Assembly: GCA_037443005.1 (NCBI GenBank)
Contig: JBBIPE010000001.1
Location: forward strand, 1,634-65,633
DNA: 64,000 bases
Origin: an archaeon
Lineage (GTDB): Archaea; Nanobdellota; Nanobdellia; Parvarchaeales; Parvarchaeaceae
Direction: 5' to 3'
Shown: positions 29,340 to 57,452 of the stretch, piece by piece
Numbering within the stretch: position 1 is the stretch's first letter
How the letters are laid out: every line of letters begins with the position of its first letter
Made by a program: the position numbers and the translations under genes
Notes under the pieces: generated by a model
Seen by the model: the letters and a program-made list of their open reading frames with translations, nothing else
Told to the model about the DNA's origin: nothing
The model's database searches: none

Positions 29340-29900
29340 TTATTTCTCCAGCCTATCTATAACCCTTTGAGCTATTTTATCTTCCATTTCTTGTATTAAT
29401 CTGCTTATAGACATATCAATTGAAAGCTTTCCGTCATTTGATTCAGCGTAAACGCCAAAAATTTTCTTTTTATAGATTTTTAAGTTCTTTTCCTTCTTTC
29501 CGAATTTCTCTAAGTCCTCTTTGTTCACGTATATTACCGCATCGTCTCCCAGTGATTTTTTTGCTTCTTTTATCAGCAATGGCATAAGCTTATCATATTC
29601 CTTGGTTTTGCTGAATTTGTCCTCAGATTTGTACAGGCTGTTTATGCTCTCTTTAAAAGCTTCACTGACTGCGGTTTTTATTATCTTCATTTTCTCCACA
29701 TTTGTTTTCGCTTTTTCTATATTGGTCTTTTCCGCTGCAAGAACAACTGCCTTTTCCCCCGCTTCTTTCATTATTAAATCTGCTGCTGCATTTGCGGATT
29801 TTATTTCCTGATTTGCCTTTACCTGCGCTTCAAGGATTATTCTTTTTATCTTTGTATCTGTCTCTTTCTCTATGTGCTCGGCTATCTTTTCAAGGCCCAT
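29340..29900 (-). CDS. atpE: A-type ATP synthase subunit E
   Basis: 186 aa. Confidence 0.8.
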   Translation of the reverse strand: MGLEKIAEHIEKETDTKIKRIILEAQVKANQEIKSANAAADLIMKEAGEKAVVLAAEKTNIEKAKTNVEKMKIIKTAVSEAFKESINSLYKSEDKFSKTKEYDKLMPLLIKEAKKSLGDDAVIYVNKEDLEKFGKKEKNLKIYKKKIFGVYAESNDGKLSIDMSISRLIQEMEDKIAQRVIDRLEK

Positions 29901-36151: not shown

Positions 36152-36175
36152 ATGACAGAGTAGTTAGCGTTTAAC

Positions 36176-36523
36176 AATGTGAGCGGGAAATCCCACATCC
36201 TTTAGGTGGGATGAAAGCGAATCCAAGAAAAGAATATAACAACGAAATGACAAAATAAAATTATGGAAGTAAGAAGAGCCTACAAATTCAGAATCTATCC
36301 GCTATCTGAAAGAGTATACTACTGCAATAGATGCGGATTGCAGATAGATAGAGACACAAACGCAGCAATAAACATACTCAAAAGAGCTATCTTTGGACAA
36401 AGTAGAAGTAACGCTCAGGGAGATTCAGTAAGACCTCAAAAAGAGGCAGGAATCAAAGAACCGAGAACATATCCTGCAATAGCATGGGAAGCCCACACGC
36501 TTTGGCGGTTTGGAGGACGTCAC
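36176..36523 (+). mobile_element. Miniature IS200/IS605-family element (copy 1): LE hairpin, in-frame TnpB N/C remnant, omega-RNA-like 3' region, RE ending GGAGGACGTCAC; inserted 3' of TTAAC
   Basis: Shares LE and 3' blocks with copies at 45198, 52500 and 57288; MEVRRAYKFRIYP plus CNRCG...DRDTNAAINILKRA TnpB remnants. Confidence 0.8.
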
Positions 36524-36529
36524 TATTAA
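36263..36529 (+). pseudogene. tnpB: tnpB remnant: in-frame fusion of TnpB N-terminus to C-terminal Zn-finger and RuvC-III motif
   Basis: MEVRRAYKFRIYP ... YYCNRCGLQIDRDTNAAINILKRA; 88 aa versus about 400 aa for intact TnpB. Confidence 0.75.
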
Positions 36530-36549
36530 TAATATTTTTAGTAGTTATT

Positions 36550-39500
36550 ATGACCTACATAAAGCAGATAGAGCTTGAGAATTTCAAATCCTTTGCAGGC
36601 CATGCAAAATTCTCATTTGTAAACGGTTTTAATGCGATAGCCGGCGCAAACGGTTCAGGCAAAAGCAACATAATAGATGCGCTACTTTTTGTGTTTGGCG
36701 GCTCGTCGAAAAAAGAGATGAGAAGCGATCTTCTTACTGATCTTATATTCAATGGTGGTAAAAAAAATAGGCCTGCAGATTTTGCCAAGGTAAATGTCAT
36801 ACTAGATAATTTGAAAAAGGAGTTCAAGAGCGCAAACGGCGATGAAATATCGATAAGTAGAAAAGTTGACAAAAGCGGAAAAAGCATGTATAGAATAGAC
36901 GGAAAAGCATCAACAAGAGAGGAAGTATTAAACGTCCTTGCAATGGTGAAATTCCGGCAGGATGGCTTCAATATAATCCCACAGGGAAGAATACTGGAGA
37001 TTATAGGGTCAACTGGGGATGAAAGACTTAATCTCATAAATGATATCTCTGGCATAAGCATATTTGAAGACAAGAAAAGCAAGGCAATGAATGAAATGAA
37101 GAAAGTTGAAGACAATATATCCAAGATAGAGACTGTTCTGAACGAGAAGAAAAAATTAATGGACCAGCTAGATAAAGAAAAAACTAGAGCGATTGAATTC
37201 CAGGAACTTAAATTAAAGCAGGCCTCAAATCTTTCAAAGCAGACATTCTTTAAGAGGGATTTGGCATACAAGGACTTAAGTTCTATACAGGAAAAGTTGA
37301 AGGATATAGAGAAAAACAATCAGGAATTATCTTCGGAAATAGATAGTATAAATTTAAGGTACAAGCGGATAAACGAAGAATTAGATAACATAAACACAAA
37401 GGCAGAAGCGGAGGGCGAGAAGGATATATCCGAGGCAGAGAAAAGGACAAAGGAGTTTGATTCAGAGCTTGCCAGGCTGAATGCAGTTCTTAAAAACGAC
37501 AATGAGCAGTTAAAAAGTATACTCTCTTCCATAGAGGATCTTTCAAAATCACAGGAAGACATCCGCCAACAGGTTAAGAAAGAAGAGGAGGAAAAAAAGA
37601 AGTTTGAAGAGAAGATGGAGCAGATAAACTCCAGAAAATTCATTCTCATAGAAGCGGATTCAAAGGCTCAGAATTACCTTAAAAGCAGGGAAACTCTCGA
37701 GAAGAGGCTATATGAAAATGAGAAAAAAATATATGATCTAAAGATAATACTTACAAATTATCCAAAAGTTGCGGATCTTGAGGATCAAATAACCAAGTTA
37801 AGGGAAACTAAATCCGAAACCGAAAAGAAGCTAAAGGACATCACATTGTCCTTTTCTGCACTTAAGCCTGAGATAGATAAGCTAAAAATACAGTCTAAAC
37901 GCGAGGGAGACTCAATTTATCTTTTCAGGGAGCAGTTGCTTAACCAGAGAAATATTCTTTCATCTCAGAGTAAGGTGATAGATGTTGTCAACAAGCTAAA
38001 AAAGGAGATAAAAGGGGTTCATGGTTCAGTATCGGAGCTTTTTTCATTAAAGGATGAAAAATTCAATGTACCAGTTATAAGAGCTATAGGCAGGAGGAGC
38101 GATTTTATAATTGTTGATGACGAAAACGTAGCAAGGCAGTGCATAGAAAAGCTTAGGGAGGAAAAGCTTGGCTTTTATACATTTATCCCGATGACAACTG
38201 TAAAAACAGTATACAATCTGGAGAAGATAAATCAAGAAGGTGTAATTGACTATATAATAAATCTTGTCACTTTCAGTGATTCTTATTCAAATGCAATGAG
38301 ATTCGTATTTGGTGATACCATACTTGTTGATAACTTTGAATCTGCAAGAAAATTTATAAACAGATACCGGATGATCCTTTCCGATGGAACAGTATTTGAA
38401 AAAACCGGAACAGTTTCCGGTGGACATTTTGAAATACCTAATATCCTGAATATAAACCGCAGAATATCTGATATAAACAAGGAGATAGAGGAACATTCAA
38501 AAATAAAGGAAAAATTAGATGAAGAGATAATAGAGAAGGAAGCCACGCTGAATTCAAGCATGTCCGAAATAAAATTACTGCAGAATGCAATAAACGAGGC
38601 AAATGTAAATCTTGATAAGGTAATAAAGGAAAGATCCAAATTCACCGGAACTGAATCAGAGGTTTCAGAGAAAATAAGGAATCTTGAGAATGAGGTACTT
38701 GAAATAAAACCAAAACTTTCTGATCTTGAACAGGGTAAACCTGAAATTTCTGATCATAAAAAAGAGATAGAATCTCTGGATAGGGAAGTAAACGATTTAC
38801 AAGTAAAAATAGCGACTTCTGGCGGCAGGCTTTCAACTATTTTTATGTCAGAGCTGTCAAATCTTGAGAAAAGGTTCACTCAGTTAACAAAGGAGAAGGA
38901 CAGGTTTGAAAAAGATATAGAAGATGTTGAAGATGCAATAAATGATACCAGAGAAAATTATGAAAAGGCGAGAAAGGAGCTGTCAAGCAAATCCGATAAT
39001 CTTACAATGTTAAGGAAGAGGAGAAATGAGCTTATAAATTCTCTTTCAGCATTACAGAAGGAAAAGGATGAGTTGCTTTCAAAGTCACAGAAAGTGGGCA
39101 ATGAGCTGAATTCGCTAAAAGTAAAGGAAGCAGAGCTGAAGGTAAAGTTTGACACTGCTGATGATGAGTTCAAAAAATACAGAGTAAATGGCGCGGAACC
39201 TGCAGAGGGAGAGACACTGGAAAAAGTTACAAAGGACCTTAACATAATAATAGCCAAAATAAATTCATTCGGGCCTATTAATGAGCTTGCCCTTAATACT
39301 TTTGTTGAAACACAAAAACAGTACGAGGATTTCTCTGGCAAGCTTTCCAGCCTTAACGAGGAAAAGGAAAGGATAATTGCCGTTATAACGGACATAGAAA
39401 ACAAGAAACTAGAGTCATTCAATAAAACGCTTTCGGATATAAATTCAATATTTACAAAGGTCTTTAATTCAATAACTGGTGGGAGTGCGGAATTTGTACC

Positions 39501-39870
39501 GGAGAATCCACAGGATCTGTTTTCTGCAGGGCTGGATATAGCAGTTGATCTGCCAAACAAGAAAGTAAAGAATGTCCGCGGGCTAAGCGGCGGAGAGCTA
39601 TCAGTTCTTGCAATTTCACTTATAATGGCACTTTCAAAGTACACTGATGCCATATTCTACGTTCTTGATGAAGTAGATGCAGCATTGGACTCCATAAATG
39701 CTGGCAATTTTTCTGCATTGGTCAAAGCCTACTCTGCAACTTCCCAGTTTATAATAATATCACATAATGAGACTACACTGATAAATGCTGATGTTATATA
39801 TGGTGTTACTATGAATAATGAGGGTCTAAGCAGGGTAGTTAGTGTAAAAATGCCGGAGCAGGCCAAATAA
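36550..39870 (+). CDS. smc: Chromosome segregation protein SMC
   Basis: N-terminal GANGSGKSN Walker A, long coiled coils, hinge, C-terminal LSGGE signature; start at MTYIKQIELENFKSF (upstream in-ORF residues are transposon-derived). Confidence 0.95.
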   Translation: MTYIKQIELENFKSFAGHAKFSFVNGFNAIAGANGSGKSNIIDALLFVFGGSSKKEMRSDLLTDLIFNGGKKNRPADFAKVNVILDNLKKEFKSANGDEISISRKVDKSGKSMYRIDGKASTREEVLNVLAMVKFRQDGFNIIPQGRILEIIGSTGDERLNLINDISGISIFEDKKSKAMNEMKKVEDNISKIETVLNEKKKLMDQLDKEKTRAIEFQELKLKQASNLSKQTFFKRDLAYKDLSSIQEKLKDIEKNNQELSSEIDSINLRYKRINEELDNINTKAEAEGEKDISEAEKRTKEFDSELARLNAVLKNDNEQLKSILSSIEDLSKSQEDIRQQVKKEEEEKKKFEEKMEQINSRKFILIEADSKAQNYLKSRETLEKRLYENEKKIYDLKIILTNYPKVADLEDQITKLRETKSETEKKLKDITLSFSALKPEIDKLKIQSKREGDSIYLFREQLLNQRNILSSQSKVIDVVNKLKKEIKGVHGSVSELFSLKDEKFNVPVIRAIGRRSDFIIVDDENVARQCIEKLREEKLGFYTFIPMTTVKTVYNLEKINQEGVIDYIINLVTFSDSYSNAMRFVFGDTILVDNFESARKFINRYRMILSDGTVFEKTGTVSGGHFEIPNILNINRRISDINKEIEEHSKIKEKLDEEIIEKEATLNSSMSEIKLLQNAINEANVNLDKVIKERSKFTGTESEVSEKIRNLENEVLEIKPKLSDLEQGKPEISDHKKEIESLDREVNDLQVKIATSGGRLSTIFMSELSNLEKRFTQLTKEKDRFEKDIEDVEDAINDTRENYEKARKELSSKSDNLTMLRKRRNELINSLSALQKEKDELLSKSQKVGNELNSLKVKEAELKVKFDTADDEFKKYRVNGAEPAEGETLEKVTKDLNIIIAKINSFGPINELALNTFVETQKQYEDFSGKLSSLNEEKERIIAVITDIENKKLESFNKTLSDINSIFTKVFNSITGGSAEFVPENPQDLFSAGLDIAVDLPNKKVKNVRGLSGGELSVLAISLIMALSKYTDAIFYVLDEVDAALDSINAGNFSALVKAYSATSQFIIISHNETTLINADVIYGVTMNNEGLSRVVSVKMPEQAK

Positions 39871-40659
39871 CTATTTGAAGTAATCTATAACCTTTTTAAT
39901 TTCTTCTAAATTCATGCCTTTGACCTGTACATTCTCCATATTTTTAATCTCATCCCCAATTTCAGAAAAAGACTCTTTGCCCTGCCTTTTTGTCTTTTTT
40001 TCTACGGCAATTAGCGCGTTTATTATCGCATTTTTAAGTGTCATCTCTCTTCTTCTGAAAATCTCCTGCAGTATATCATTATCCTTCTTCTTGAGTCTTA
40101 CCATAAGGCTTGTTACTCTCGGTTCCGGATAAAAGACTTCCTTTGGCACCGGCATTATATCTGAAAATTCGATAAATATTTTCTGAACTGAGGAAAATGC
40201 AGTTTTATTATCTTTCTCACAAAGCTGTTCCGCGATTGTTTTTGGTAATATCATCACGCCGGATTTAAAGCTGTAACTAGCCAGTTTTTCTATTATTCTA
40301 TCTGCTATGTTATACGGTGGATTTGATATAATTTTTGTGAACTTTGGGTATATGATATCAAGTGCATCAGCGTTTATTATCTGCACGTTTGGGTCTATTT
40401 CATATTTGTCTACAAGGTATGAATAACATTTTATTTCTTTTTCTATAGCTATAACCTTGCATATATTTCTGGCTTCTATCTCGATACTGCCGAATCCCGC
40501 GCCTATATCAAGGACCACATCACTATTTTCAAGCTCAGCTTCTGCTATTTCTCTTTTTAATATTTCCTCATCAACAAGGAAATTCTGTCCATTTTCATTG
40601 TCACTTTTTATGTTAAAGTCTTTTACAAGTTTTTTAATTGTGTCATTTAAAAGATTCAT
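39871..40659 (-). CDS. ksgA: 16S rRNA (adenine-N6,N6)-dimethyltransferase KsgA/Dim1
   Basis: GQNFLVDEEI, DIGAGFGSIE, NPPYNI motifs. Confidence 0.9.
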   Translation of the reverse strand: MNLLNDTIKKLVKDFNIKSDNENGQNFLVDEEILKREIAEAELENSDVVLDIGAGFGSIEIEARNICKVIAIEKEIKCYSYLVDKYEIDPNVQIINADALDIIYPKFTKIISNPPYNIADRIIEKLASYSFKSGVMILPKTIAEQLCEKDNKTAFSSVQKIFIEFSDIMPVPKEVFYPEPRVTSLMVRLKKKDNDILQEIFRRREMTLKNAIINALIAVEKKTKRQGKESFSEIGDEIKNMENVQVKGMNLEEIKKVIDYFK

Positions 40660-40660
40660 A

Positions 40661-40939
40661 TTATTTTCCCCTTCCGCGAGGGGGTTTAAGTCTTTCTATG
40701 TAATATTCTTGGTTGCAGTACTTGCAGCTGAAAACGTATGCCTCTTTTGATTTTCCGTTTAGTTTCCTTTTTTCAGTGGTTAGTTTACTAGAAAATTCAT
40801 TGTGCTTTCCGCATTTTGGACAATCAAACATGAAGTGAAACTCTTCTTCTCCTTGCTCTCTGTATATAATTACCTTTTCCAGTTTTCCTTCATAATCTAT
40901 AAATGATTTTTTTATAAAATTCACTTTGTTTATATCCAT
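40661..40939 (-). CDS. Zinc-ribbon protein (two CxxC pairs), co-operonic with ksgA
   Basis: CPKCG ... CKYCN; 1-bp gap to ksgA. Confidence 0.5.
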   Translation of the reverse strand: MDINKVNFIKKSFIDYEGKLEKVIIYREQGEEEFHFMFDCPKCGKHNEFSSKLTTEKRKLNGKSKEAYVFSCKYCNQEYYIERLKPPRGRGK

Positions 40940-40969
40940 ATAAAAAATAGCTTTTTCTGTTTTATATAT

Positions 40970-41620
40970 CTATTTAACTTTAATCTTGTTTAATTCATTG
41001 CTTTCTTTTATCCATATTGCCCAGCAAAACTGTGTGCGGCTTATATTCATTTTATCTGCGATATACTTTCCATATTCAATACATTCCTCAGAATTTTTTA
41101 CATAACGAAAGTTTTTGATAATCCATTTCTTTATTACCTTATCCGGCATTATCACATCCATGCCGCTTTGCATTCTTAAGTACTGGAAAGTGCTTATTCC
41201 AATCCCTTTTATGCTGCCAATCGGATCCTTTTGTATTTTTGAGGGATCGGCATTTTTCGCCCATTCTCTTAATTTATTAAATTCCTGTTTTTCGGTCATA
41301 GAAGACAGAAAACTGCAGATTCTGGACATTGCATTCCATACTCTTCTATTTCTAAAAAGGTAAATAAGCTCGCTTCTCTTTATTTTACTAAAATCTCTGC
41401 ATCTTTCCGCAATGCCGGTTTCAACGTATTTTTCTTCAAATTTTATTACCTTCGGCATAACTACTGTGAAATAGTTTAACCCAGAACTGTCAAGGCAGCT
41501 GTCAAGTACTATTAGAATTGGCTTTCCATTCCATCTTTTCCCCTTTGCGCATAAGCTTGAAAATTCCCCTGCTTCTGCCAATATCTCCTTTCCGAAAAGC
41601 TTTAATGCGTTATATTTCAT
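40970..41620 (-). CDS. HhH-motif protein, possibly the DUF655-type conserved neighbour of ksgA
   Basis: DPIGSIKGIGISTFQYL helix-hairpin-helix; gene neighbourhood. Confidence 0.4.
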   Translation of the reverse strand: MKYNALKLFGKEILAEAGEFSSLCAKGKRWNGKPILIVLDSCLDSSGLNYFTVVMPKVIKFEEKYVETGIAERCRDFSKIKRSELIYLFRNRRVWNAMSRICSFLSSMTEKQEFNKLREWAKNADPSKIQKDPIGSIKGIGISTFQYLRMQSGMDVIMPDKVIKKWIIKNFRYVKNSEECIEYGKYIADKMNISRTQFCWAIWIKESNELNKIKVK

Positions 41621-41719
41621 ATTTATGAATAGGCTTTAGATATTAATTATATCTTGTTATAAGCGCTATAAAAATATATTTAAAGCTGAAAAACATAAGT
41701 AGTGTATAATTTTGATAGT

Positions 41720-42421
41720 ATGAAAGTACCAAGGTCTAGGAGAAGAGGAAAAAGTAGGGTCTTTAGATTTGATGATTTCAAGGCCATAGCCGAAGTCAAG
41801 CTTCCAAGGCTTCAGGATCCTATGAATGCGAGAATCATGAAGATAATACATGATCCGTATAGGACGGCTCCTTTAATGCAGTTAAAATTTGAAAATGGAG
41901 TTACTGCTTTTATACCTGCGTTTACTGGCGCTTATGAAGGCATGTTAGTAACTTATATGAAAAGCGATTCCGCAAAAAATGGGTCTATGCTTAAGTTGGG
42001 AGATATACCAACTGGAACAAATGTTTATAATATAGAGATTAAGCCTGGTGATGGAGGCAAGCTTTCCAGGGCCGGCGGAAACAGCGCAAAGGTTACAGAG
42101 AACACTGGGAATGAAGTTGCATTGTCACTGTCAAGCGGAAGGGTGATAAGACTAAATCCTAAATGCAGGGCAATTATTGGCAGGGTAGCAAATGCCGGCC
42201 GTAAAGAAAAGCCATTCTATAAGGCGGGTAACAAGTTTCATCTTATAAAAGCTAGAAGCAAATACTGGCCTATGAATGCCGCAGTGGCAATGAACGCTTA
42301 CGAGCATAAATTCGGCGGGAAGAGAAGGAGTACGCAGCACAAGTCGAAGAGTTCTGCAAGGAATTCGCCTCCTGGTGCAAAGGTCGGATCGATTGCTCCT
42401 AAGAGAACAGGTGTAAGATAA
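41720..42421 (+). CDS. rpl2: Ribosomal protein L2
   Basis: HDPYRTAPL, PTGTNVYNIE, RAGG blocks; start taken at MKVPRSRRRGKS. Confidence 0.9.
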   Translation: MKVPRSRRRGKSRVFRFDDFKAIAEVKLPRLQDPMNARIMKIIHDPYRTAPLMQLKFENGVTAFIPAFTGAYEGMLVTYMKSDSAKNGSMLKLGDIPTGTNVYNIEIKPGDGGKLSRAGGNSAKVTENTGNEVALSLSSGRVIRLNPKCRAIIGRVANAGRKEKPFYKAGNKFHLIKARSKYWPMNAAVAMNAYEHKFGGKRRSTQHKSKSSARNSPPGAKVGSIAPKRTGVR

Positions 42422-42807
42422 TGGAAGAGTATAAATTCAGAGGAAAAAGCATTGAAGAGCTTAAAAAAATGTCGAATGAGGAGCTGTCAAAAATAGCAAA
42501 TGCCGATTTTAGAAGAGTAATAAAAAGAGGATTTTCCCCAGAAGAAAAGATTTTCCTTTCAAATATGAAAAAGAAGGCTATAAAGTCCAAGCCCATCAAA
42601 ACACATATGAGAGAGATGTTTATACTTCCGGATTTTGTGGGTCTTACAATACATGTTTATAACGGAAAGGAATTTGTGCCTTTGGAGATAAAGCCACAGA
42701 TGGTTTTTCATAGATTGGGAGAGTTTGCGCTTTCAACAAAGCAAGTCAAGCATGGCTCGCCAGGTATGAAAGCTACACGTTCAAGCGGGTTCGTCCCTAT
42801 TAAGTAG
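42421..42807 (+). CDS. rps19: Ribosomal protein S19
   Basis: YNGKEFVPLEIKPQMVFHRLGEFA; 1-nt overlap TAATG. Confidence 0.9.
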   Translation: MEEYKFRGKSIEELKKMSNEELSKIANADFRRVIKRGFSPEEKIFLSNMKKKAIKSKPIKTHMREMFILPDFVGLTIHVYNGKEFVPLEIKPQMVFHRLGEFALSTKQVKHGSPGMKATRSSGFVPIK

Positions 42808-42809
42808 AT

Positions 42810-43457
42810 ATGGCAGAAAAAACAATTACAAAAAGCAAGGAGGTAGCTGTTAAGAGTGTAAAAGCCGCAAGGCAGATTACACGGCTTCAAGTGAAAAGAG
42901 AAGGCATGCCTATCTCCCTTAAGCACACTCACGAAATAATAGAAGCTGTAAAAGGAAAGGATATTACAAAGGCAGTGAATCTGCTTAAAAAAGTACTTCT
43001 AAAGGAGGCTTATATACCTTTCAGAAAATATCCGAGCAAAGGACATAAACATGGTGTTCCATCAGGATTTCCGCAGAAAGCCACTAAACAGGTAATAGAA
43101 ATGCTTGAAGAACTAAAGAGCGATGCCAAGAATATGGGATTTGATGAATCAAAGATAACTATAAGCGGTTATTCCTTGGGGAGAGGTGGATACCCACGTT
43201 TTTCAGGTGGCAATATTTATAGACACGGGAAAAGAACCAATCTTGTAATTTATTCATTTATTGATCAGGAGAGAAAAGTGGTTGAGAAAAAGACCGAAAA
43301 GTCTGAAAAAACTGAAAAGCCCGAAGATACAGCTGGAAAGAATGAAGAAAAAGCAGAAGAAAATATTGAATCGTCAGAGGAAACAGTCAAAGAAGAGGGA
43401 GCTGTACAAGAAAAGAATAAAAGCGAAGATAACAATGATTTAAAGGCGGAGAAGTGA
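42810..43457 (+). CDS. rpl22: Ribosomal protein L22 with about 60-aa acidic/Lys-rich C-terminal extension
   Basis: uL22 core in first 150 aa; tail EKKTEKSEKTEKPEDTAGKNEEKAEEN... Confidence 0.85.
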   Translation: MAEKTITKSKEVAVKSVKAARQITRLQVKREGMPISLKHTHEIIEAVKGKDITKAVNLLKKVLLKEAYIPFRKYPSKGHKHGVPSGFPQKATKQVIEMLEELKSDAKNMGFDESKITISGYSLGRGGYPRFSGGNIYRHGKRTNLVIYSFIDQERKVVEKKTEKSEKTEKPEDTAGKNEEKAEENIESSEETVKEEGAVQEKNKSEDNNDLKAEK

Positions 43458-43458
43458 T

Positions 43459-44130
43459 ATGCTACCAAAGAAAATAATATCAAATAAAGTGAGTGAAGAA
43501 GCTGCTAGAGAGTATCTTTTCAAGAAATTCAGCAGATTTGGGATAAGTGATATAAAAATAGAAAAGACTCCTCTTGGGATGAAGATAGTGATAAAGACCC
43601 CTAAGCCTGGGACAATAATCACAAGAGCTAATCAGGTTCTAAAGGAGAGTTCGAAGGATTTAGGAGAGTATTTCAATCAGGAATCACCTAGAATAGAAGT
43701 AGAGAACTCCTCAAATCCTAATTTAGATCCTGCGATAGTAGCGGATTCAATAGCTTTTAAGATAGCAAAATACGGACCAATGAAATATAAGGTCGTCGCG
43801 CATAAGGCTATGGATGCAATTATGGGAGCAGGGGCCAAGGGCGTTGAAATAGAAGTAGGTGGAGTAATCAAGGAAAGAGCTGCACATTTTAAATTCAGGC
43901 CGATTGGTAGCGTGATGCCTAAAACCGGTCAGGTGGAACTTTTTGGGGTGAGAACTGCTAAGAAGCAGCTTGTCCTTAAAAGGGGATCTATAGGCATAAA
44001 AGTTACAATAGTCGTGCCGACTGAAACAATAGGAGGTATAAAAATAAATGGCGGAAGAGAATCTGAAGGATCTGGAGATGGAGCTCCTGAAAATGAACAT
44101 AAAGAAGACGCAAGGGCTACAGCCAGCTGA
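43459..44130 (+). CDS. rps3: Ribosomal protein S3
   Basis: KH domain; conserved position after L22. Confidence 0.9.
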   Translation: MLPKKIISNKVSEEAAREYLFKKFSRFGISDIKIEKTPLGMKIVIKTPKPGTIITRANQVLKESSKDLGEYFNQESPRIEVENSSNPNLDPAIVADSIAFKIAKYGPMKYKVVAHKAMDAIMGAGAKGVEIEVGGVIKERAAHFKFRPIGSVMPKTGQVELFGVRTAKKQLVLKRGSIGIKVTIVVPTETIGGIKINGGRESEGSGDGAPENEHKEDARATAS

Positions 44131-44218
44131 TGCTGGCAAATACAGACACCTTAAAAAGAAAGTTGCACAGCTTAAGAACGAACTTAGACAGAAAGAGTTG
44201 TCTCCTACTAAGAAGTAG
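44048..44218 (+). CDS. rpl29: Ribosomal protein L29 (56 aa), overlapping the rps3 3' end in another frame
   Basis: MAEENLKDLEMELLKMNIKKTQGLQPADAGKYRHLKKKVAQLKNELRQKE matches uL29; below the ORF-track size cut-off. Confidence 0.7.
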   Translation: MAEENLKDLEMELLKMNIKKTQGLQPADAGKYRHLKKKVAQLKNELRQKELSPTKK

Positions 44219-44266
44219 GCTAATGAACATTCAAAAAAGTTTTATTTTAATAGGTTCTTCTTAGGA

Positions 44267-45151
44267 TTATCCATTTATTAAGTCAAAGAGCGTATCTAAC
44301 TGCTGCCTTTTTGCCTCTATCTGTATCTTCATCTTCTTGTACTCATCTTCGCTTATTTTCCCTGCGGCAAAGTTCTTTTCAAGGTCCGCTGATTCTTTTT
44401 CTATATCCCTAAGCTTGTTGTTCAATTTCGTAGAACCCTGCGGTCCTATCGAAAGATTACTTGAAACAGCGTTTGCAAGCTGTCTTTTGTCAAGCTTGTT
44501 GCCGTACTTCCTAGATAATTCACTGTACATCTCTGTCATATCTCCTTCAAGTTTTGAATATGAATCCTTATCCTTGAATTTGCAGTCACCGGCCAGAACT
44601 ACCCTTACGTTTGCGGACTGTTCTGTAGGGTCATAGACACCTACCACTTTGGCCCATAAAAATATCGGAACTATCTTTTTTATCTCTAGAAACACTACAG
44701 TCAATATAAAAAACATTATCATACCGTATAAAATAAGTGCAGATGGAGAATAACTAAAATGAGTTATATTAGTGTATATATCTGAGCGGTAGGAGACAGC
44801 TAATAGCACTGCAAGTATTATACCTATTATAAGGCAGGCTTTCCATGCAATAGGGTATTTTGATCCTTTTTTGTTGTCTTTTGCGCTTTTTATAAGCGCT
44901 CGTATAGGCTTTGCATTACCACCGCGGAATGTTTCCTCAAGTTCATTATCCTCAAATTTTGAGAGTTCATTAAGAAGTATCTTGTAATCCATGTCCGTCA
45001 TATACTCGGAAATCTGGCTCCTAAGAATCTGCGGATCGTCGCTTTTTATGTAAAGATCATAGAAAACATGCTTCTTTTCAAGCTCAGAAGTGTCAAATTC
45101 CCTTTCATAATTCTTTATACTGAAACCTAACATAAAGATATATGATTTCAT
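44267..45151 (-). CDS. Membrane protein (2 TM) with C-terminal SHOCT-like motif
   Basis: Central TM pair; C-terminal AGKISEDEYKKMKIQIEAK resembles SHOCT. Confidence 0.45.
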   Translation of the reverse strand: MKSYIFMLGFSIKNYEREFDTSELEKKHVFYDLYIKSDDPQILRSQISEYMTDMDYKILLNELSKFEDNELEETFRGGNAKPIRALIKSAKDNKKGSKYPIAWKACLIIGIILAVLLAVSYRSDIYTNITHFSYSPSALILYGMIMFFILTVVFLEIKKIVPIFLWAKVVGVYDPTEQSANVRVVLAGDCKFKDKDSYSKLEGDMTEMYSELSRKYGNKLDKRQLANAVSSNLSIGPQGSTKLNNKLRDIEKESADLEKNFAAGKISEDEYKKMKIQIEAKRQQLDTLFDLING

Positions 45152-45197
45152 TTAAATAAATATGTATTATCGCAGTTTTTAGGCGCTGTGGATTAAC

Positions 45198-45497
45198 AAA
45201 GATAGTGGAAAATCTCACAGTCTTTAGAAGTGGGATGAAAGCGAACCGAAAAAACTATATAACAATAAAATACAATATTAAAAATATGGAGACAGTAAGA
45301 GCCTACAAATTCAGGATTTATCCGAGAGATGTAAACGCAGGAATAAACATACTCAAAAGAGCTACCTTCGGACAGAGGGGAAGTCACGCTCTACGAGATT
45401 CTATAAGACCTCAGGTTGTGGCAGGAATCAAAGAACTGAGAACATGCTCTGCAATAGAGGAGGGATCCACACGATTTGGCGGTTGGGAGGTTGTCAC
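45198..45497 (+). mobile_element. Miniature IS200/IS605-family element (copy 2), inserted 3' of TTAAC; RE GGAGGTTGTCAC ends 3 nt before the nuoJ ATG
   Basis: LE hairpin ATCTCAC-loop-GTGGGAT; METVRAYKFRIYP...RDVNAGINILKRA remnant; conserved 3' blocks. Confidence 0.8.
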
Positions 45498-45501
45498 TTA
45501 A
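45286..45501 (+). pseudogene. tnpB: tnpB remnant (N-terminus fused to RuvC-III motif remnant); stop TAA overlaps nuoJ ATG
   Basis: METVRAYKFRIYPRDVNAGINILKRA; TAATG junction at 45499-45503. Confidence 0.7.
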
Positions 45502-45977
45502 TGGATATAGGCAGCATAGGTTTCATTATAATCTCGTTAATGCTTATTATCACTGCATTGCTCATGGTTGCTACGAGAAACATGATACATTCTCTTCTCT
45601 ATATGTTCATGTTTATTATCTCTGTAACGGCTATGATCCTTTACCTTAATGCAGTTTTTTTAGGGGTAGCAGAGCTTATAATATACAATGGCGGTATAGT
45701 CCTGCTTCTAGCGATAGGTATCAGTTCAATGCCGGAAGGAAAAATAAACAGACTTAATTCAAAGCTTGCTTATGCTCTACCTGTTGTCTTTCTTGGAGTG
45801 ATATCTTTTCTGCTTCTTAAAATGCCGTCATCATCGTATGGCAATACACTTAATTACTCTACCTTTGGAGTATACTTTTTTCAGAATTATGGTGGTTTGC
45901 TGGTTGTGCTTGCATTTACAGCGATAGCCAGCGTATTCTCTACAATATATATAATCAGTAGGGGTGATAAGCTATGA
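45501..45977 (+). CDS. nuoJ: NADH-quinone oxidoreductase subunit J
   Basis: MDIGSIGFIIISLMLIITALLMV... NuoJ TM pattern; upstream in-ORF residues are element-derived. Confidence 0.8.
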   Translation: MDIGSIGFIIISLMLIITALLMVATRNMIHSLLYMFMFIISVTAMILYLNAVFLGVAELIIYNGGIVLLLAIGISSMPEGKINRLNSKLAYALPVVFLGVISFLLLKMPSSSYGNTLNYSTFGVYFFQNYGGLLVVLAFTAIASVFSTIYIISRGDKL

Positions 45978-46276
45978 TACCGGAATCTTATTTTTTACTG
46001 CTTACCACGGTTCTTTTTGCTATAGGCTTATATGGTATACTATCTAGAAGAGAAGGCATATCTATTATAATATCATCCGAGATAATCGTGAATGCTGCAC
46101 TGATAAACTTTGTATCCGCTGCAAACTTTTATTCGAAATTAAACGGGATAAGCTATGCGTTAATCACGCTTATAATGGTTGTATTTGAAACTGTCGTTTT
46201 CATAGCCTTGATAGTGGTATTCTCAAGGAGAACCAATTCGTTATCGATATCGAAACTTAGGAGGTATAAGGGGTAG
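45974..46276 (+). CDS. nuoK: NADH-quinone oxidoreductase subunit K
   Basis: 100 aa, 3 TM, NuoK-like. Confidence 0.8.
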   Translation: MIPESYFLLLTTVLFAIGLYGILSRREGISIIISSEIIVNAALINFVSAANFYSKLNGISYALITLIMVVFETVVFIALIVVFSRRTNSLSISKLRRYKG

Positions 46277-46277
46277 T

Positions 46278-48026
46278 ATGCTTTACTTTATAGTTATACC
46301 AATGCTTGTGTCGGCGGTTATTATTGCACTGCTCGGCGAGAAAAAGAGTTTGAGCTGGCTTATAGCGGTAACCGGCTCGGCTGTTTCATTTGTAATCTCT
46401 GCGGCCATGTTCCTGTTATATTTCAATAAAAATATTATAGAGAGTTATAACTGGTTTTCGGTTTCAGGCTTGAACTTCTCAGTTTCGTTTATAGGGAATA
46501 ACCTCACGCTTTTTATGGCCCTTCTTGTTTCATTTATATCCTTTATGGTGCTTATATTCGCTGGTTTTTACATGCGGAAGGAGAAACAGTCAAGATTCTA
46601 TTCAGAGATGTCATTTTTTATATTTTCAATGCTAGGCTTGGTTATCTCAAACAGCCTTCTACTGTTTTTTATATTCTGGGAGTTTGTTGGTGTGACCTCA
46701 TATCTCTTAATAGGCTTCTGGTATGATAGAGAAGGGCCAGCAGTTTCAAGCAAAAAGGCGCTGCTTATAACAAGAATAGGGGATCTTTCATTTCTCGCTG
46801 CAATAATTATACTTTTCTCCTCTTTTCACACTTTCTCAATATCAAATATACTTGGATCTTTATCCATTGTGCCGAATTATGTGGTAATACTTGCAGGATC
46901 TCTTCTTACGATTGCTGCGTTTTCGAAGGCTGCACAGTTCCCATTTTATACCTGGCTTATTGATGCAATGGAAGGCCCTACACCGGTAAGTGCGCTTCTC
47001 CATTCAGCAACAATGGTAGCAGCGGGTGCATATCTCCTTATAAGGGTCCTTCCCTTAATCTCAGCTGCAGGTATATCTGATTTTATAGTTGTGATGGCAT
47101 TCATAACTGCATTTATAGCGGCTCTTCTCGGACTTAAAGAAAGGCATTTCAAGAAGATACTTGCATACTCTACAATAGAAAGTCTTGCCTTTATGTTCAT
47201 AGCAATAGGAACATTGAATGCCGGCGGCGCTCTTTTCTATCTTTTCACACATGCAGTTTTCAAGTCTATGCTTTTCTTCATAAGCGGGGTTTTGGCTGTA
47301 ATGTTCGGTACATATGACATATACCAGCTTAGAAGCAAAGGAACTGGAAAGACCTGGGTGATAATACCTGCAATAATAGGTTTTGCCTCAATATCAGCAA
47401 TTCCACCATTTATGAGCTTTTTTGCGCACTCTGCGCTTACATACAATTTTAATGTGTACGAGAATATAGCATTCGTTTTTGTTTCCTTCTTTACAGCTTT
47501 GTTTTCCTTCAGAGCATTATTTGTAATATTTGGAAAGCCGGCCAAAAAACCACTTAAAAAAGAGTTCAATACTATCTTTCCGATAATCACTCTTGCGGTT
47601 ATATCAACTATTGGTGGAGTTTTGCTGTATTTCTTCAGCGGTATAATATACACTCCGCATTCATTCGATTATTTCTCATTTATATCCCTTGCGGCTGCGT
47701 TTCTTGGTGCTTTCGTTTCCTATGCTGTATTCTATAAAGGCAGGGCGGTTTATTATTCATCAAAATTACATGATATCTCAGTTAAGCTTGAAGATTACAG
47801 GTACGAAAGATTTATTATATTCCTTGGCAATGCAGTTTCCTTTTTTGGAGATTATACCGCAAGATTTGACAGTGTGCTTGCAAATTCGGCATCAGCAGCC
47901 GCGGAATCTACATTTCGTCTCTCATCAATGACAAGGGAGATCGAAAATGGAGATGCGTTCAGATACTTAACCGCAGTCATTATAGGGCTTATAGTGGTTA
48001 TAGTATTGGCGGTGATATTTATATGA
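46278..48026 (+). CDS. nuoL: NADH-quinone oxidoreductase subunit L
   Basis: WEFVGVTSYLLIGFWYDR antiporter-like motif; 582 aa. Confidence 0.9.
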   Translation: MLYFIVIPMLVSAVIIALLGEKKSLSWLIAVTGSAVSFVISAAMFLLYFNKNIIESYNWFSVSGLNFSVSFIGNNLTLFMALLVSFISFMVLIFAGFYMRKEKQSRFYSEMSFFIFSMLGLVISNSLLLFFIFWEFVGVTSYLLIGFWYDREGPAVSSKKALLITRIGDLSFLAAIIILFSSFHTFSISNILGSLSIVPNYVVILAGSLLTIAAFSKAAQFPFYTWLIDAMEGPTPVSALLHSATMVAAGAYLLIRVLPLISAAGISDFIVVMAFITAFIAALLGLKERHFKKILAYSTIESLAFMFIAIGTLNAGGALFYLFTHAVFKSMLFFISGVLAVMFGTYDIYQLRSKGTGKTWVIIPAIIGFASISAIPPFMSFFAHSALTYNFNVYENIAFVFVSFFTALFSFRALFVIFGKPAKKPLKKEFNTIFPIITLAVISTIGGVLLYFFSGIIYTPHSFDYFSFISLAAAFLGAFVSYAVFYKGRAVYYSSKLHDISVKLEDYRYERFIIFLGNAVSFFGDYTARFDSVLANSASAAAESTFRLSSMTREIENGDAFRYLTAVIIGLIVVIVLAVIFI

Positions 48027-49435
48027 TAAGCTTTGTTTTTCTCCTTTTAATCCCGTTTTTAGGCATACTGATTATACTGCTAAGGAATAGTATAAACAAA
48101 AAGATATCCGCAGAATTAGTTGCATTTTGCACTATGGTTGTCACGGCGGTAATTTTCGCAGCAGGCCTTGTTTTAGGCTTTACGTCTGTAAACTTTTCTA
48201 TAACTCCTGCAATAGACTTTTACTTCTCTCTAGGCTCCAATTTTATAACTATACCTTTTCTTATTTTGGCGACTTTACTGCCTATCCCCATTCTATTCTT
48301 TGCAAATAGAGAAATAAGACAGAATGGTGGGTTGTTCTATGTTTTTTATCTGCTGATCTATCTCTCTGTTATAGGAGTATTTATCTCTTCGAATCTTATA
48401 CTATTTTTTCTCTTCTGGGAGCTTGCGGTTCTATCACTTTTCTTCCTTACGAGTTTCTGGGGCAGCCGTAAAACCTCTAGAAAATCCGGCATGAAATTTC
48501 TTGTATTCACGCAGTTCGGGAGTCTTACTCTGCTTGCGGTGTTTATACTCCTTTTTGTATACACTGGCAGTTTTAATCTCTCTTCCATAGAGGCGCATAT
48601 GTCAGCAGTCCCTGCTTATATCGAGTATATCTCCTTTTTCCTTCTTCTTATAACAGTTATGATAAAGATGCCTGTTTTTCCGCTGCATGAATGGCTTCCA
48701 GATTCATACTATGACTCTCCAATGTCCGGCACTATGCTTCTTTCAGGTATTCTGTCGAAGCTCGGCGGATTCGCTTTTATATTATTCGGATTCGGCCTTT
48801 TCAGGAACGTCCTTATAAATCTCAGAATACCTTTGGTAGCACTGGGGGTTTTCACTGCTGTTTACATAGCCTTCACAGCTTCGGGACAGAGGGACTTAAA
48901 AATGCTTCTTTCATACTCAAGCATGTTTTATATGGCCCTGGTTTTCATTGGTATATCTTCAGGCATAACTACAGCTATAACAGGTTCGGTTATACTTATG
49001 GTAAGCCACGGATTTATAATAACAATGCTGTTCGGTATATCATACTTGCTTTTCCAGAAGACTGGAACTTATAAAACATCAGAAATGTCAGGCTTGATGT
49101 CAAGAATGCCCCTTCTGGCCTTTTTCCTTATATTTGGGGTTTTTGCAAGCTTAGGTGTGCCAGGACTCTCAAACTTTCCAGGAGAACTTTTGATATTCAT
49201 AGGCAGTTATTCCGTGGCAGGGATATCTCTTATAGCAATATTCGGCATAATGCTTTCTACAAACTATTATCTCAGGGTTATAAAGGAGGCTCTGTTCGGC
49301 CAGATTCAGAAAAAATTCTCAGGAATAAAGGATATAAACAAAATAGAATTAGTGGTCTTTTCATTTCTGTCTTTTTTCATCCTTCTTATAGGACTTTTCC
49401 CTTCACTGCTTATAAATGTTCTTGGGGGGCTTTAA
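48023..49435 (+). CDS. nuoM: NADH-quinone oxidoreductase subunit M
   Basis: Antiporter-like 14-TM; 470 aa. Confidence 0.85.
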   Translation: MISFVFLLLIPFLGILIILLRNSINKKISAELVAFCTMVVTAVIFAAGLVLGFTSVNFSITPAIDFYFSLGSNFITIPFLILATLLPIPILFFANREIRQNGGLFYVFYLLIYLSVIGVFISSNLILFFLFWELAVLSLFFLTSFWGSRKTSRKSGMKFLVFTQFGSLTLLAVFILLFVYTGSFNLSSIEAHMSAVPAYIEYISFFLLLITVMIKMPVFPLHEWLPDSYYDSPMSGTMLLSGILSKLGGFAFILFGFGLFRNVLINLRIPLVALGVFTAVYIAFTASGQRDLKMLLSYSSMFYMALVFIGISSGITTAITGSVILMVSHGFIITMLFGISYLLFQKTGTYKTSEMSGLMSRMPLLAFFLIFGVFASLGVPGLSNFPGELLIFIGSYSVAGISLIAIFGIMLSTNYYLRVIKEALFGQIQKKFSGIKDINKIELVVFSFLSFFILLIGLFPSLLINVLGGL

Positions 49436-49436
49436 A

Positions 49437-50789: not shown

Positions 50790-50829
50790 GTATCCAAAGC
50801 AATATAATTGATGTTTACTCATTTATTTT

Positions 50830-51525: not shown

Positions 51526-51565
51526 ATGGGAATCGTTATAAATCCAAACTATCATAAGTAATATT

Positions 51566-52498
51566 ATGAGTCCAGAAGAATTTTGGGGTTTTATAATTGG
51601 GGTTATAGCTCTTGTTTTATTGTTAGCATCCAGCATTTTCTTTTCGGCATTGTTTTATCTGTTTATAGCAATCTTTATAGTACTTCTTGGCAGCATCTTT
51701 TTCATCGTTTTCGTGAAGAAATACAGCCAGTTTGAAAGAGGAATAATATTCAGATTGGGTAAGTTCAACAGGATAACAGGACCGGGTTGGGCGGTAGTAA
51801 TTCCTTTCTTTGAACAAGAATACAAAAAGGTGGATGTACGTGTAAAGATGATGGATTTAAGTTCACAGAATATATTCACTGCAGACGACCTTAAACTCTC
51901 GATTGATGGTACTATATATTATCAGATAGTAGATCCGGAAAAAGCTACTTTACAGATTGATAATTATGGTCAGGGCCTTTCAAACCTTGTTCAGTCCGCA
52001 GTCAGGAATTCAATAGCTTCGCTTACAATGAGACAGGTTTTCAGTAGTCTTGACAGGCTGAATGATATACTTGCAGACGCTATAAGGCATATGACCTGGA
52101 AATGGGGGATAGATGTACCTTCTGTACAGATAAGGAGCGTTTCTCCATCCAATGAAGTTATACAGGCCATGCAGCAGCCTGAAATAGCTGCAAATCTTTT
52201 GCAGGCGCAGAGATTCAAGGCTGAAGCCCAAAAGATAGTAATAGAAGCCATAGGAGAAGGAGGTAAATCGCTTGATGACAAATCTATAATGTATCTTTAC
52301 CTACAGGCTTTGAAGCAAGTTGGGGAATCCAGCTCCTCAAAGATAGTGCTGCCTATGCAGTTCATGCAGGGTGCCGGAAATATGTTAGGAGGTATAGCAG
52401 GCCTTTCTGCAACGGCTTTAGCTTCTCTTGGAGGACAGGAAAACGTCCAGAACGTAATAGACAAGATAAAGGAAAAAATATCGCGCGCTGGCGGTTAA
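51566..52498 (+). CDS. SPFH/band-7 (stomatin/prohibitin-like) membrane protein
   Basis: N-terminal TM hairpin plus SPFH core. Confidence 0.8.
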   Translation: MSPEEFWGFIIGVIALVLLLASSIFFSALFYLFIAIFIVLLGSIFFIVFVKKYSQFERGIIFRLGKFNRITGPGWAVVIPFFEQEYKKVDVRVKMMDLSSQNIFTADDLKLSIDGTIYYQIVDPEKATLQIDNYGQGLSNLVQSAVRNSIASLTMRQVFSSLDRLNDILADAIRHMTWKWGIDVPSVQIRSVSPSNEVIQAMQQPEIAANLLQAQRFKAEAQKIVIEAIGEGGKSLDDKSIMYLYLQALKQVGESSSSKIVLPMQFMQGAGNMLGGIAGLSATALASLGGQENVQNVIDKIKEKISRAGG

Positions 52499-52499
52499 A

Positions 52500-52985
52500 A
52501 ATGTGAGCGGGAAATCTCACAGTCTTTAGAAGTGGGATGAAAACGAAATTCGGATAAAATATATATTAGCATGTTATTAGCATGTAAAACAACATAAAAG
52601 ATATGGAGGTAATAAGATCCTATAAATTCAGGATCTATCCAGACATAAAGAGACAGTCGGAAATAGACAATATGCTCGTTCTTGCGCAAAGGCTTTACAA
52701 CAAACTACTTGAGAAATCAATTCAGTCATACAAGAACGGAAATAGTAAAATCTCCATGTCGCAGTTCAATGAATTCGAGAAAGAGACAGATACAAATATA
52801 TCAGTAAATATACTCAGAATAGCTACCATCGGACAAAGTAGAAGTAACATTCAGGGAGATTCTGTTAGACTTCAAAAGGAGGCGGGAATCAAAGAACTGA
52901 GAACCGGTAAAACATATCCTTTGCATAATGCGGTAAACACATGAAACAAAGGAAGCCCATGGAATTTATTCGTGGGAGGATTCAC
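52500..52985 (+). mobile_element. Miniature IS200/IS605-family element (copy 3), inserted 3' of TTAAA (which contains the SPFH stop); RE GGAGGATTCAC contains the stop codon of the convergent HAD gene
   Basis: LE identical to copy 1 over AATGTGAGCGGGAAATC; longest TnpB N-terminal remnant; RE of copy-4 type. Confidence 0.8.
52603..52944 (+). pseudogene. tnpB: tnpB remnant retaining about 45 aa of the TnpB N-terminal region fused to the RuvC-III motif remnant
   Basis: MEVIRSYKFRIYPDIKRQSEIDNMLVLAQRLYNKLLEK ... TDTNISVNILRIA. Confidence 0.7.
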
Positions 52986-53701: not shown

Positions 53702-53712
53702 AAAAAACAAAA

Positions 53713-57218: not shown

Positions 57219-57287
57219 ATAATCTGAAATGATTATTAAAAAAGGACAATACAATAATATTCTGAAAAGTTATATTAAAAATTTAAG

Positions 57288-57452
57288 TTGGAAATCTTTC
57301 ATCCTTTAGAAGTGAGCTGAAGGCGAACTTCTAACAAATAAAATCTCCAAAATTATCGGCTTGTCAGTCTCGCTGGGAATGCACATTGTGTTTGTGGTAT
57401 CATTCATCATCAAACATGAAGCCCATAGAATTTATTCGTGAGAGGATGTCAC
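57288..57452 (+). mobile_element. Minimal (165 bp) IS200/IS605-derived element (copy 4): degenerate LE plus copy-3-type RE GAGGATGTCAC, no ORF; 3' of TTAAG
   Basis: LE core TTTCATCCTTTAGAAGTGAGCTGAAGGCGAAC and last 45 nt align to the other copies. Confidence 0.7.

Follow-up and report, generated by a model that had tools for sequence, protein, structure and literature searches.

The window, i.e., the whole 64-kb stretch of DNA that was analysed, carries four related sequences (c1 to c4), all on the plus strand, and no further copy was found in it by blastn. All four lie between genes: c1 between a trmB-like gene and smc, c2 between an unknown gene and nuoJ, c3 between the genes of a Band-7 protein and a HAD hydrolase, and c4 between a GTPase gene and a galT-like gene. 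The copies and the features recognised within them are given below; R1 denotes a covariance model of the 3' region that is described further on.

36171..36175, plus strand: TTAAC, target / transposon-adjacent motif of c1, 17 nt before the AAATC motif
36176..36523, plus strand: c1, a deletion derivative of 348 nt with TnpB residues 1-13 and ~336-403 (blastn, protein alignment; Pfam Cas12f1-like_TNB, 1.3e-7)
36190..36212, plus strand: left-end hairpin of c1, ATCCCAC-loop-GTGGGAT, the minimum-energy DNA fold (-6.2 kcal/mol), with the distal 3-bp stem lost
36263..36529, plus strand: in-frame mini-ORF of c1, a tnpB remnant of 88 aa (translation)
36383..36523, plus strand: omegaRNA-like scaffold and right-end hairpin of c1, ending in GTCAC (R1)
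45193..45197, plus strand: TTAAC, target / transposon-adjacent motif of c2, at the canonical spacing
45198..45497, plus strand: c2, a deletion derivative of 300 nt with TnpB residues 1-13 and ~351-403 (blastn, protein alignment)
45286..45501, plus strand: in-frame mini-ORF of c2, 71 aa, its TAA stop overlapping the ATG of nuoJ (TAATG)
45358..45497, plus strand: omegaRNA-like scaffold and decayed right-end hairpin of c2 (R1)
52495..52499, plus strand: TTAAA, target / transposon-adjacent motif of c3, which includes the TAA stop of the upstream Band-7 gene
52500..52985, plus strand: c3, a deletion derivative of 486 nt with TnpB residues 1-58 and ~349-403 (blastn, alignment; Pfam HTH_OrfB_IS605, 1.6e-7)
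52603-52944, plus strand: in-frame mini-ORF of c3, 113 aa
52819..52985, plus strand: omegaRNA-like scaffold (long variant) and intact right-end hairpin of c3 (R1)
57275..57279, plus strand: TTAAA, target / transposon-adjacent motif of c4 in the corrected register, with the canonical 17-nt spacing to AAATC at 57292
57280..57452, plus strand: c4, a minimal remnant of 173 nt consisting of a degenerate left end and the last ~100 nt (blastn)

An earlier note on this DNA had reported four related sequences, and their presence was borne out by blastn and alignment; R1 matches all four. In pairwise blastn comparisons the copies matched each other with E-values from 1e-43 to 2e-4 and with 69-86% identity. 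Aligned with one another, c1-c4 have in common a left-end block, a block of the DRDTNAAINILKRA type and the right end ..GGAGGnnGTCAC. The shared ends described previously (a left-end block, N- and C-terminal motifs of TnpB, and a right end GGAGG-NN-(G/T)TCAC) were recovered as well, except that the right end of c3 (GGAGGATTCAC) is one base below the consensus length. A conserved TATA-like box (..GAATATAAC.. or similar; 36232-36240 in c1, ~45262-45270 in c2) comes directly after the left end in c1-c3 and precedes the tnpB ATG, as in tnpB-only relatives (start codons in the window copies: MEVRRAYKFRIYP and variants). The tail that has been kept amounts to the last 170-225 nt in c1-c3 and to ~100 nt in c4, where the right end and only the 3' portion of the omegaRNA region survive, without a coding remnant. 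With the TnpB of a full-length relative (L070) as the query, tblastn recovered c3 (5.8e-22), c1 (1e-17) and c2 (7e-12), and together with Pfam and the alignment to TnpB residues 1-13 or 1-58 plus ~336-403 this confirmed that the ORFs hold the N- and C-termini of TnpB, as had been claimed. No intact tnpA or tnpB was found by tblastn within the 64-kb window, again in agreement with the earlier note, and neither TnpA nor further TnpB sequence was detected there. The deletion junctions differ among the window copies and no two copies have the same architecture; two subfamilies can be told apart by how the 3' region is shaped, a 'short' one (c1, c2) and a 'long' one (c3, c4). At 173-486 nt the copies are too short for a transposase and both ends are retained, as in palindrome-associated transposable elements (PATEs). 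A weak 24-nt match of c3 at 29847-29870 was discarded as chance purine-rich similarity, and R1 has no match there.

All four window copies start directly 3' of a TTAAN motif that begins 17 nt ahead of the AAATC motif, as do 82 of the 118 family copies listed. Among the matches listed, 106 of the 118 family left ends follow TTAAC, 6 follow TTAAA and 2 follow TTAAT, nearly all with the same spacing. Insertion after TTAAN, as formerly proposed, is upheld for all four copies, with a correction for c4: it had been placed after TTAAG with a start at 57288, and the in-register motif is TTAAA with the start 8 nt earlier, at 57280, where a manual base-by-base comparison of 57280-57296 with the consensus AATGTGAGCGGGAAATC gave 13 matching positions out of 17. 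Terminal inverted repeats, flanking direct repeats or a target duplication were not found around the four copies. TTAAT follows the right end directly in c2 and c4 and after an extra TA in c1 (chance p ~3e-5), as had been noticed before; it is absent from ~29 relatives, so that it is not a feature of the family. Depletion of TTAAC in the window is not notable (37 vs 52 expected on the plus strand, 57 vs 54 expected on the minus strand). The GC-rich 12-14 nt ahead of the target motif are similar in c2 and c3.

The pattern AAATCYCAC-N8-13-GTGGGATGAAARCGAA was scanned in one genome per archaeal and bacterial species. The left-end motif was present in at least 116 archaeal DNA stretches (118 copies), mostly of Micrarchaeota and Thermoplasmata, and also in assemblies of Bathyarchaeota, Thaumarchaeota, Marsarchaeota and Aenigmatarchaeota. 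In the relatives the left end is followed either by an ORF of 400-434 aa that starts with MELTRAYKFRIYPD.. or by a 132-aa ORF and then such an ORF, and in a third class the right end (GGAAGCCCACnCCGTTTACGGGTGGGAGGATGTCAC) comes only 200-540 nt after the left end. Full-length relatives with the same ends measure 1355-1449 bp (tnpB alone) and 1716-1772 bp (tnpA+tnpB). Pfam identified the 132-aa ORF between left end and tnpB (L070, L117 and L027) as Y1_Tnp (1.6e-36) and found Cas12f1-like_TNB (1.2e-26), OrfB_IS605 (1.7e-22) and HTH_OrfB_IS605 in the long ORF. The sequence 3' of GTCAC is unrelated from element to element (~29 elements). One metagenome-assembled genome contains identical 313-nt elements with different flanks (L002, L035 and L057).

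Membership of the family in IS200/IS605 is shown by its ends, its target motif and the Y1 TnpA of relatives; the IS200/IS605 signature invoked in the earlier note thus stands, with covarying subterminal hairpins (below) and no inverted repeats or duplications. The lineage with the TTAAC target, the GTCAC right end and CCCAC/GTGGG hairpins is apparently previously undescribed. TnpB is also found in IS607 elements, and c2 and c4 are flanked by TTAA left and right, which might suggest that the repeats belong to the IS607 family, to a terminal-inverted-repeat MITE or to a TTAA-duplicating element, or else that their similarity is due to chance. No serine recombinase was seen among the tnpA genes of the family; those between the ends encode Y1_Tnp. 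TTAA-duplicating insertion was rejected because relatives lack the double TTAA of c2 and c4 (~29 of them carry neither TTAA nor TTAAT after the right end), and chance is contradicted by E-values reaching 1e-43 for the similarity and 1e-32 for the covariance model. The Y1 TnpA, the lack of terminal inverted repeats and these E-values refute such readings, to which we attach a practically negligible probability.

The left- and right-end hairpins of the family follow one design: CCCAC, a 1-nt bulge, a variable stem of 3 bp, a TTTA loop, and GTGGG. The distal stem of the left end covaries, with 84 of 90 cells paired among 30 distinct sequences (shuffled controls: mean 56, maximum 68), and double changes occur in 5 of the 7 pairs of the right-end hairpin. 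The left end repeats the hairpin halves of the right end in direct orientation. Folded as single-stranded DNA, the ends of the full-length relative L066 adopt the canonical structures (-9.4 and -6.8 kcal/mol). Among the eight ends in the window, only the left end of c1 and the right end of c3 have the hairpin as their minimum-energy fold; none of the four copies has it at both ends, c4 has it at neither, and the right end of c2 does not have it. The 7-bp subterminal hairpin formerly ascribed to the shared left end therefore holds as a minimum-energy fold for the left end of c1, with its equivalent in the right end of c3, and the other ends have decayed. In the family, TCAC together with GAAG 5' of the right-end hairpin recalls TCAA and GAAT of IS608, which we take to be the cleavage-site / 'DNA guide' pair of that element.

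TnpB guide RNAs (omegaRNA or reRNA) are encoded over the 3' end of tnpB, with the flank serving as guide, as has been established for ISDra2 and others. For archaea, SisTnpB1 of Sulfolobus islandicus, a TnpB of tested activity, takes its guide RNA from the right end (10.1101/2023.03.06.531077). The last 215 nt of 22 relatives were aligned with those of c1-c3 and analysed by RNAalifold, which returned six helices with 27 pairs, compensatory double changes being seen in 24 of them. Cells were paired in 89.1%, vs 70.4% in column shuffles (0 of 500 shuffles reached the observed value) and 32-55% when the partners were slid by 1-3 columns; the covariation score of the structure was 0.50 vs 0.19. 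The structure sits inside the 3' coding region of tnpB, in the last ~170 nt before GTCAC, and ends at the right-end boundary. Because this is where TnpB guide RNAs lie, the structure reads as the putative scaffold of such an omegaRNA. The earlier note did not recognise the retained 3' block as an omegaRNA scaffold.

Full-length tnpB-only relatives keep 24-27 of the 27 pairs and the two tnpA+tnpB elements in the alignment 18-19, and in the window 23 pairs are kept in c1, 24 in c2 and 23 in c3. The window copies display a compensatory pair, GATTC/GAATC, where relatives carry GAGAG/TTCTC. Helix 1 is broken in c3 (1 of 5 pairs) and most of helix 3 is lost in c2, while c4 is without helices 1-5. 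The scaffold is not complete in every deletion derivative among the relatives either, helix 1 being absent from L039 and L041. The covariance model R1 was built from 16 relatives from other genomes and no window sequence. It matched c3 with 127 bits (E 1.7e-32), c1 with 103 bits (E 4.6e-26) and c2 with 82 bits (E 2.2e-20), and in c4 only positions 57349-57452 (30 bits, E 1.5e-6); no further match of R1 was found in the window (next best E=0.18). Searches against Rfam release 15, of the window at gathering thresholds and of the c1 region at E<=10, gave only tRNAs and no omegaRNA family. The 3' deletion breakpoints of c1-c3 cluster in a stretch of ~50 nt that lies immediately upstream of the scaffold, which fits either a deletion hot spot or selection to keep the scaffold.

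The window copies are core-deletion derivatives. The junction of c1 lies between two imperfect direct repeats that are present in full-length relatives, ATTCAGAATCTATCC (codons 9-13) and ATTCAGGATATGCC (~codons 330-335), and that of c3 at an AGAGA microhomology; repeat-mediated core deletion of IS605-type elements is known in haloarchaea (PMC3119063). Since the left end abuts the tnpB start in c1-c3, their parents were tnpB-only and hence already non-autonomous. A metagenome contig (L118) is syntenic with positions 37382-52482 of the window at ~70-78% identity. Before nuoJ it has an unrelated AT-rich spacer of 150 nt and no c2 element, and no c3 element follows its Band-7 gene, whose last bases are ..cacTTAAAccagc; as in the window, TTAAA there encloses the TAA stop. 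Relative to the L118 lineage, c2 and c3 are therefore insertions, c3 exactly 3' of TTAAA.

The proteins closest to the mini-ORFs among 5.8 billion sequences searched are all fragments (66-196 aa). One short relative (P0018) represents a fifth copy on the same contig outside the window. Another (P0016), on a different contig, is 99% identical to the c1 ORF and shares its junction; this may be a second copy of recent origin and not the c1 locus of a sister genome. A third (P0017), also on a different contig and with 85% identity to the c1 ORF, matches its IYP|LSERVYY junction and has a tail like the smc-side flank of c1, which suggests the same locus and vertical inheritance. The deletion junction of c3 is shared by P0007, likewise on a contig other than that of the window. 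The identity of 69-82%, the four architectures, the decayed hairpins and the fragment-only relatives indicate old, largely vertically inherited, decaying remnants. The copies are thus most likely immobile fossils rather than a miniature family that is currently amplifying. Near-identical copies at different sites were not found within the window, where all four differ, in contrast to the clear amplification in L002, L035 and L057.

We consider it likely (probability about 0.85) that tnpB-only (IS1341-group) members of IS200/IS605 gave rise to the four repeats, which would be old, non-autonomous remnants that have undergone deletion and are most probably immobile. If the copies followed the established IS200/IS605 pathway (Meers et al. 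2023), a Y1 TnpA provided in trans would have excised their parents in single-stranded form and inserted them ('peel and paste'), placing the element immediately 3' of TTAAC or TTAAA. The core of tnpB would then have been lost by deletion between short repeats or microhomologies. Such a remnant would be moved solely by TnpA made elsewhere and kept from loss solely by TnpB made elsewhere that carries the omegaRNA of the remnant itself. Guided by the 3' flank in this RNA, TnpB would cut the emptied donor site (TTAAC plus flank) and recombination would restore the element. Elements of this kind 'often encode omegaRNAs' on which TnpB must act in trans (Meers et al. 2023, 10.1101/2023.03.14.532601).

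An alternative is that c1-c4 are active PATEs, for which a TnpA gene at another place in the genome would supply the mobility and a resident TnpB would use their omegaRNAs in trans to restore them after excision. The amplified, identical 313-nt miniature elements of relatives speak for such activity, as do the junctions of c3 in P0007 and of c1 in P0016 and P0017, the TATA-like box kept upstream of the scaffold in c1-c3, and the clustering of their 3' breakpoints within ~50 nt upstream of it. However, the window copies share no architecture, their identity is only 69-82%, in none of them do both ends fold into the hairpin at minimum energy, the tail of P0017 points to the same locus as c1, and the close protein relatives are all fragments, so that we regard ongoing activity as unlikely. 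The previous proposal of non-autonomous elements mobilised in trans is accordingly retained in its first part, as tnpB-only parents need TnpA in trans; the decayed hairpins and different junctions make present-day mobility of the copies, like miniature-element amplification in this window, doubtful. The reading as fossil remnants accounts neither for the frame kept in c1-c3 nor for the recurrence of TTAAT.

The position of c2 deserves a separate consideration. The start of nuoJ is supported by a called gene in L001 and a conserved N-terminus in L118; c2 ends 3 nt upstream of this ATG, and besides c2 the intergenic DNA comprises only ~40 nt. The transcript of nuoJKLMN must therefore begin within c2 or run through it, and this forced read-through from c2 into nuoJKLMN (a respiratory complex) is the only locally notable consequence of the insertions, and a mildly notable one. 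It might be that the host has taken over at least some of the remnants, with c2 driving and translationally coupling nuoJKLMN and c1 and c4 acting as upstream modules of smc and the galT-like gene. The stop of the c2 ORF overlaps the nuoJ ATG (TAATG) and the GGAGG of the right end lies ~10 nt upstream of it, L118 has its own 150-nt AT-rich region in place of c2, and three of the four copies point into the downstream gene. Read-through of c2, however, follows from its position alone and is not evidence of selection, and c3 faces a convergent gene. The shared orientation of the four copies, in a region of positive GC skew, has a chance of 1/8 and matches the local gene and GC-skew direction (the skew tracks gene orientation and is thus uninformative on the direction of replication). 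A takeover by the host is rather doubtful on this evidence. We see a slim chance for a more elaborate version, in which c2 would have taken the place of the original promoter region of nuoJKLMN and would provide the TATA-like box of tnpB, a structured 5' leader derived from the omegaRNA, a Shine-Dalgarno-like GGAGG from the right end and a coupled leader ORF (TAATG), the remnants being domesticated with TTAAT and the kept frames under selection, or their omegaRNAs being used in trans by TnpB or by a nuclease-dead TnpB relative as a regulator.

The frame is kept in all three deletions (1/27 if independent), and the ORFs are still open in P0016, P0017 and P0007. The mini-ORFs (71-113 aa) could accordingly encode small functional proteins, i.e., regulators or inhibitors in which an N-terminal TnpB segment (13-58 aa) is fused to the RuvC-III/C-terminal segment; Pfam finds HTH_OrfB_IS605 in c3, the only copy that keeps the whole region. 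The figure of 1/27 is weakened if c1 and c2 share ancestry, as they may, and by our own estimate the chance of meeting no stop, given the divergence, is ~0.25. Furthermore, the RuvC-I and RuvC-II motifs and the zinc-finger half are missing, the 3' part is the RNA scaffold, and the 'protein' tail crosses the right-end hairpin, continues into flanking DNA and has a different end in every copy. A protein function for these ORFs appears very improbable to us.

The window elements match PATEs already described in archaea and bacteria. Like the PATEs or core-deleted IS605-type elements of Haloquadratum walsbyi and other haloarchaea (Dyall-Smith et al. 2011, PMC3119063), they are too short for a transposase, carry near-terminal palindromes, are devoid of terminal inverted repeats or target duplications, and are inserted after a motif of 4-5 nt. 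They differ in the host lineage and in the ends (TTAAC ... GTCAC, CCCAC/GTGGG hairpins), and they are heterogeneous and decayed, whereas the haloarchaeal PATEs are of a homogeneous, amplified type; the 2011 study is older than the omegaRNA concept. The protein-free, PATE-like elements of Geobacillus stearothermophilus (ISGst families; Meers et al. 2023) resemble them in both ends, the omegaRNA, a guide formed by the 3' flank, the need for TnpA and TnpB in trans, a target motif on the left and a short motif where the right end is cleaved. Those elements are bacterial, and their excision and RNA-guided cleavage have been demonstrated, whereas the activity of the window copies is inferred and they look inactive.

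With the IS1341 group (tnpB-only) and the IS605 group (e.g., IS608 and ISDra2), the family shares a Y1 TnpA in autonomous relatives, imperfect subterminal hairpins in direct orientation, insertion 3' of a short motif without duplication, a TnpB with RuvC motifs, and a structured RNA that overlaps the 3' end of its gene and stops at the right-end boundary. Unlike IS608 and ISDra2, the window copies contain no complete gene; the motif is TTAAC vs TTAC (IS608) and TTGAT (ISDra2), and the RNA differs from those systems in that no Rfam family matches it. SisTnpB1 of S. islandicus is likewise an archaeal IS200/IS605 TnpB with a right-end guide RNA and an AT-rich motif, TTTAA, that is similar to TTAAC; it belongs to another lineage and is a full-length, active nuclease, in contrast to the remnants of the window. 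The biology of the window elements repeats what is established for PATEs and for omegaRNA-bearing non-autonomous elements.

Among the loci compared, most of which were from Micrarchaeota, ORFs of the window matched Micrarchaeota contigs only (33-51% aa identity), which tentatively suggests a Micrarchaeota-type host. For annotation, the four repeats and the small ORFs in them (e.g., 52603-52944) are to be taken as transposon debris and not as genes. The family as a whole spans Micrarchaeota, Thermoplasmata and other archaea, many of them from what look like acid-mine-type samples, and its full-length sets of TnpB and omegaRNA may interest those who mine for compact RNA-guided nucleases. It may also help to trace gene flow between symbionts and their hosts.

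The remnant c2, like the other three core-deleted tnpB remnants (c1, c3 and c4) on the + strand, is intergenic, and its right end, GGGAGGTTGTCAC, ends 3 nt upstream of the ATG of nuoJ. The same ATG is overlapped by the stop of the mini-ORF (the in-frame tnpB remnant) of c2, in the string TAATG, and a GGAGG that resembles a ribosome-binding site lies ~10 nt upstream. In L118, a syntenic relative without c2 and c3, the position upstream of nuoJ is taken by a 150-nt spacer unrelated to c2. Because c2 abuts the nuoJ ATG, transcription of nuoJKLMN must start in the c2 remnant or cross it.

Features at and around the remnants (window coordinates unless a contig is named)
36524-36530: TTAAT after the c1 right end, with TA between
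45180-45197: GC-rich 5' flank of c2
45454-45503: junction of the c2 right end with nuoJ (ATG at 45501)
45498-45502: TTAAT directly after the c2 right end
52482-52499: GC-rich 5' flank of c3
52495-52499: TTAAA target motif of c3
52564-52585: tandem duplication in c3
52982-52985: end of c3, with its terminal TCA
52982-53854: mechanically listed ORF
53713-53784, - strand: tRNA gene
57270-57280: left arm of the inverted repeat flanking c4
57453-57457: TTAAT directly after the c4 right end
57467-57477: right arm of the same repeat
L118 15500-15525: counterpart of the c3 5' flank, at the end of the Band-7 gene
L002 5031-5094: inverted omegaRNA-helix-like piece (element positions 127-190)

Convergent genes lie on both sides of c3: the Band-7 gene has its TAA stop within the target motif, and the HAD-hydrolase gene (- strand) takes its TGA stop from the terminal TCA of the remnant. 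The tRNA gene falls within the mechanically listed ORF, and the true HAD-hydrolase gene must start downstream of it; Pfam coverage of this gene runs from ~53710. In c3, TATTAGCATGT is perfectly duplicated in tandem in the stretch from the left-end hairpin to the tnpB start, which makes the promoter-like spacer longer than in c1 and c2.

The recurrence of TTAAT 3' of the right ends of c1, c2 and c4 has a chance probability of ~3e-5, and TTAAT follows the right end in 0 of ~29 relatives. A target duplication was rejected; the elements may have inserted into tandem TTAA or TATA-like promoter DNA. The 12-14 nt 5' of the target motif are GC-rich and alike in c3 (GCGCGCTGGCGG) and c2 (GGCGCTGTGGA). 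At the corresponding place in L118, the Band-7 gene ends in four codons entirely different from those in the window, at equal length, and the likeness could be due to chance or to a 5' flank that moved with the element. Around c4 there is a perfect 11-nt inverted repeat (TTATATTAAAA / TTTTAATATAA), and part of the target motif is shared with its left arm. Either a palindrome split by the insertion or a pair of TATA-like boxes at the site may account for this repeat.

A contig from a separate assembly of this organism (Logan SRR11582165, contig L001, 7193 bp) matches the window from 45349, starts inside c2 and, if colinear, ends at ~52541, within the left end of c3. Short-read assemblies are interrupted at the repeats, which implies that additional copies exist in the SRR11582165 sample. 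P0018, a 76-aa ORF with ..DTNAAINILKRAT..SRSNAQGDS.. on a 95,734-bp NCBI contig taken to be that of the window, is not encoded within the 64 kb and is at least a fifth copy, and a more decayed one.

Micrarchaeota relatives carry amplified miniature elements of 313-342 nt (L002, L035, L057, L061, L099), with the left end reduced to ~60 nt, the right end to ~36 nt, and an internal segment that corresponds, in inverted orientation, to the helix region of the omegaRNA. Among the matches listed (L002-L117), the same 36-nt left-end motif occurs in assemblies of Micrarchaeota, Thermoplasmata, Bathyarchaeota, Thaumarchaeota (Nitrosotalea, Nitrosopumilus), Marsarchaeota and Aenigmatarchaeota, often from one sample series, which suggests that the element has been exchanged across phyla.
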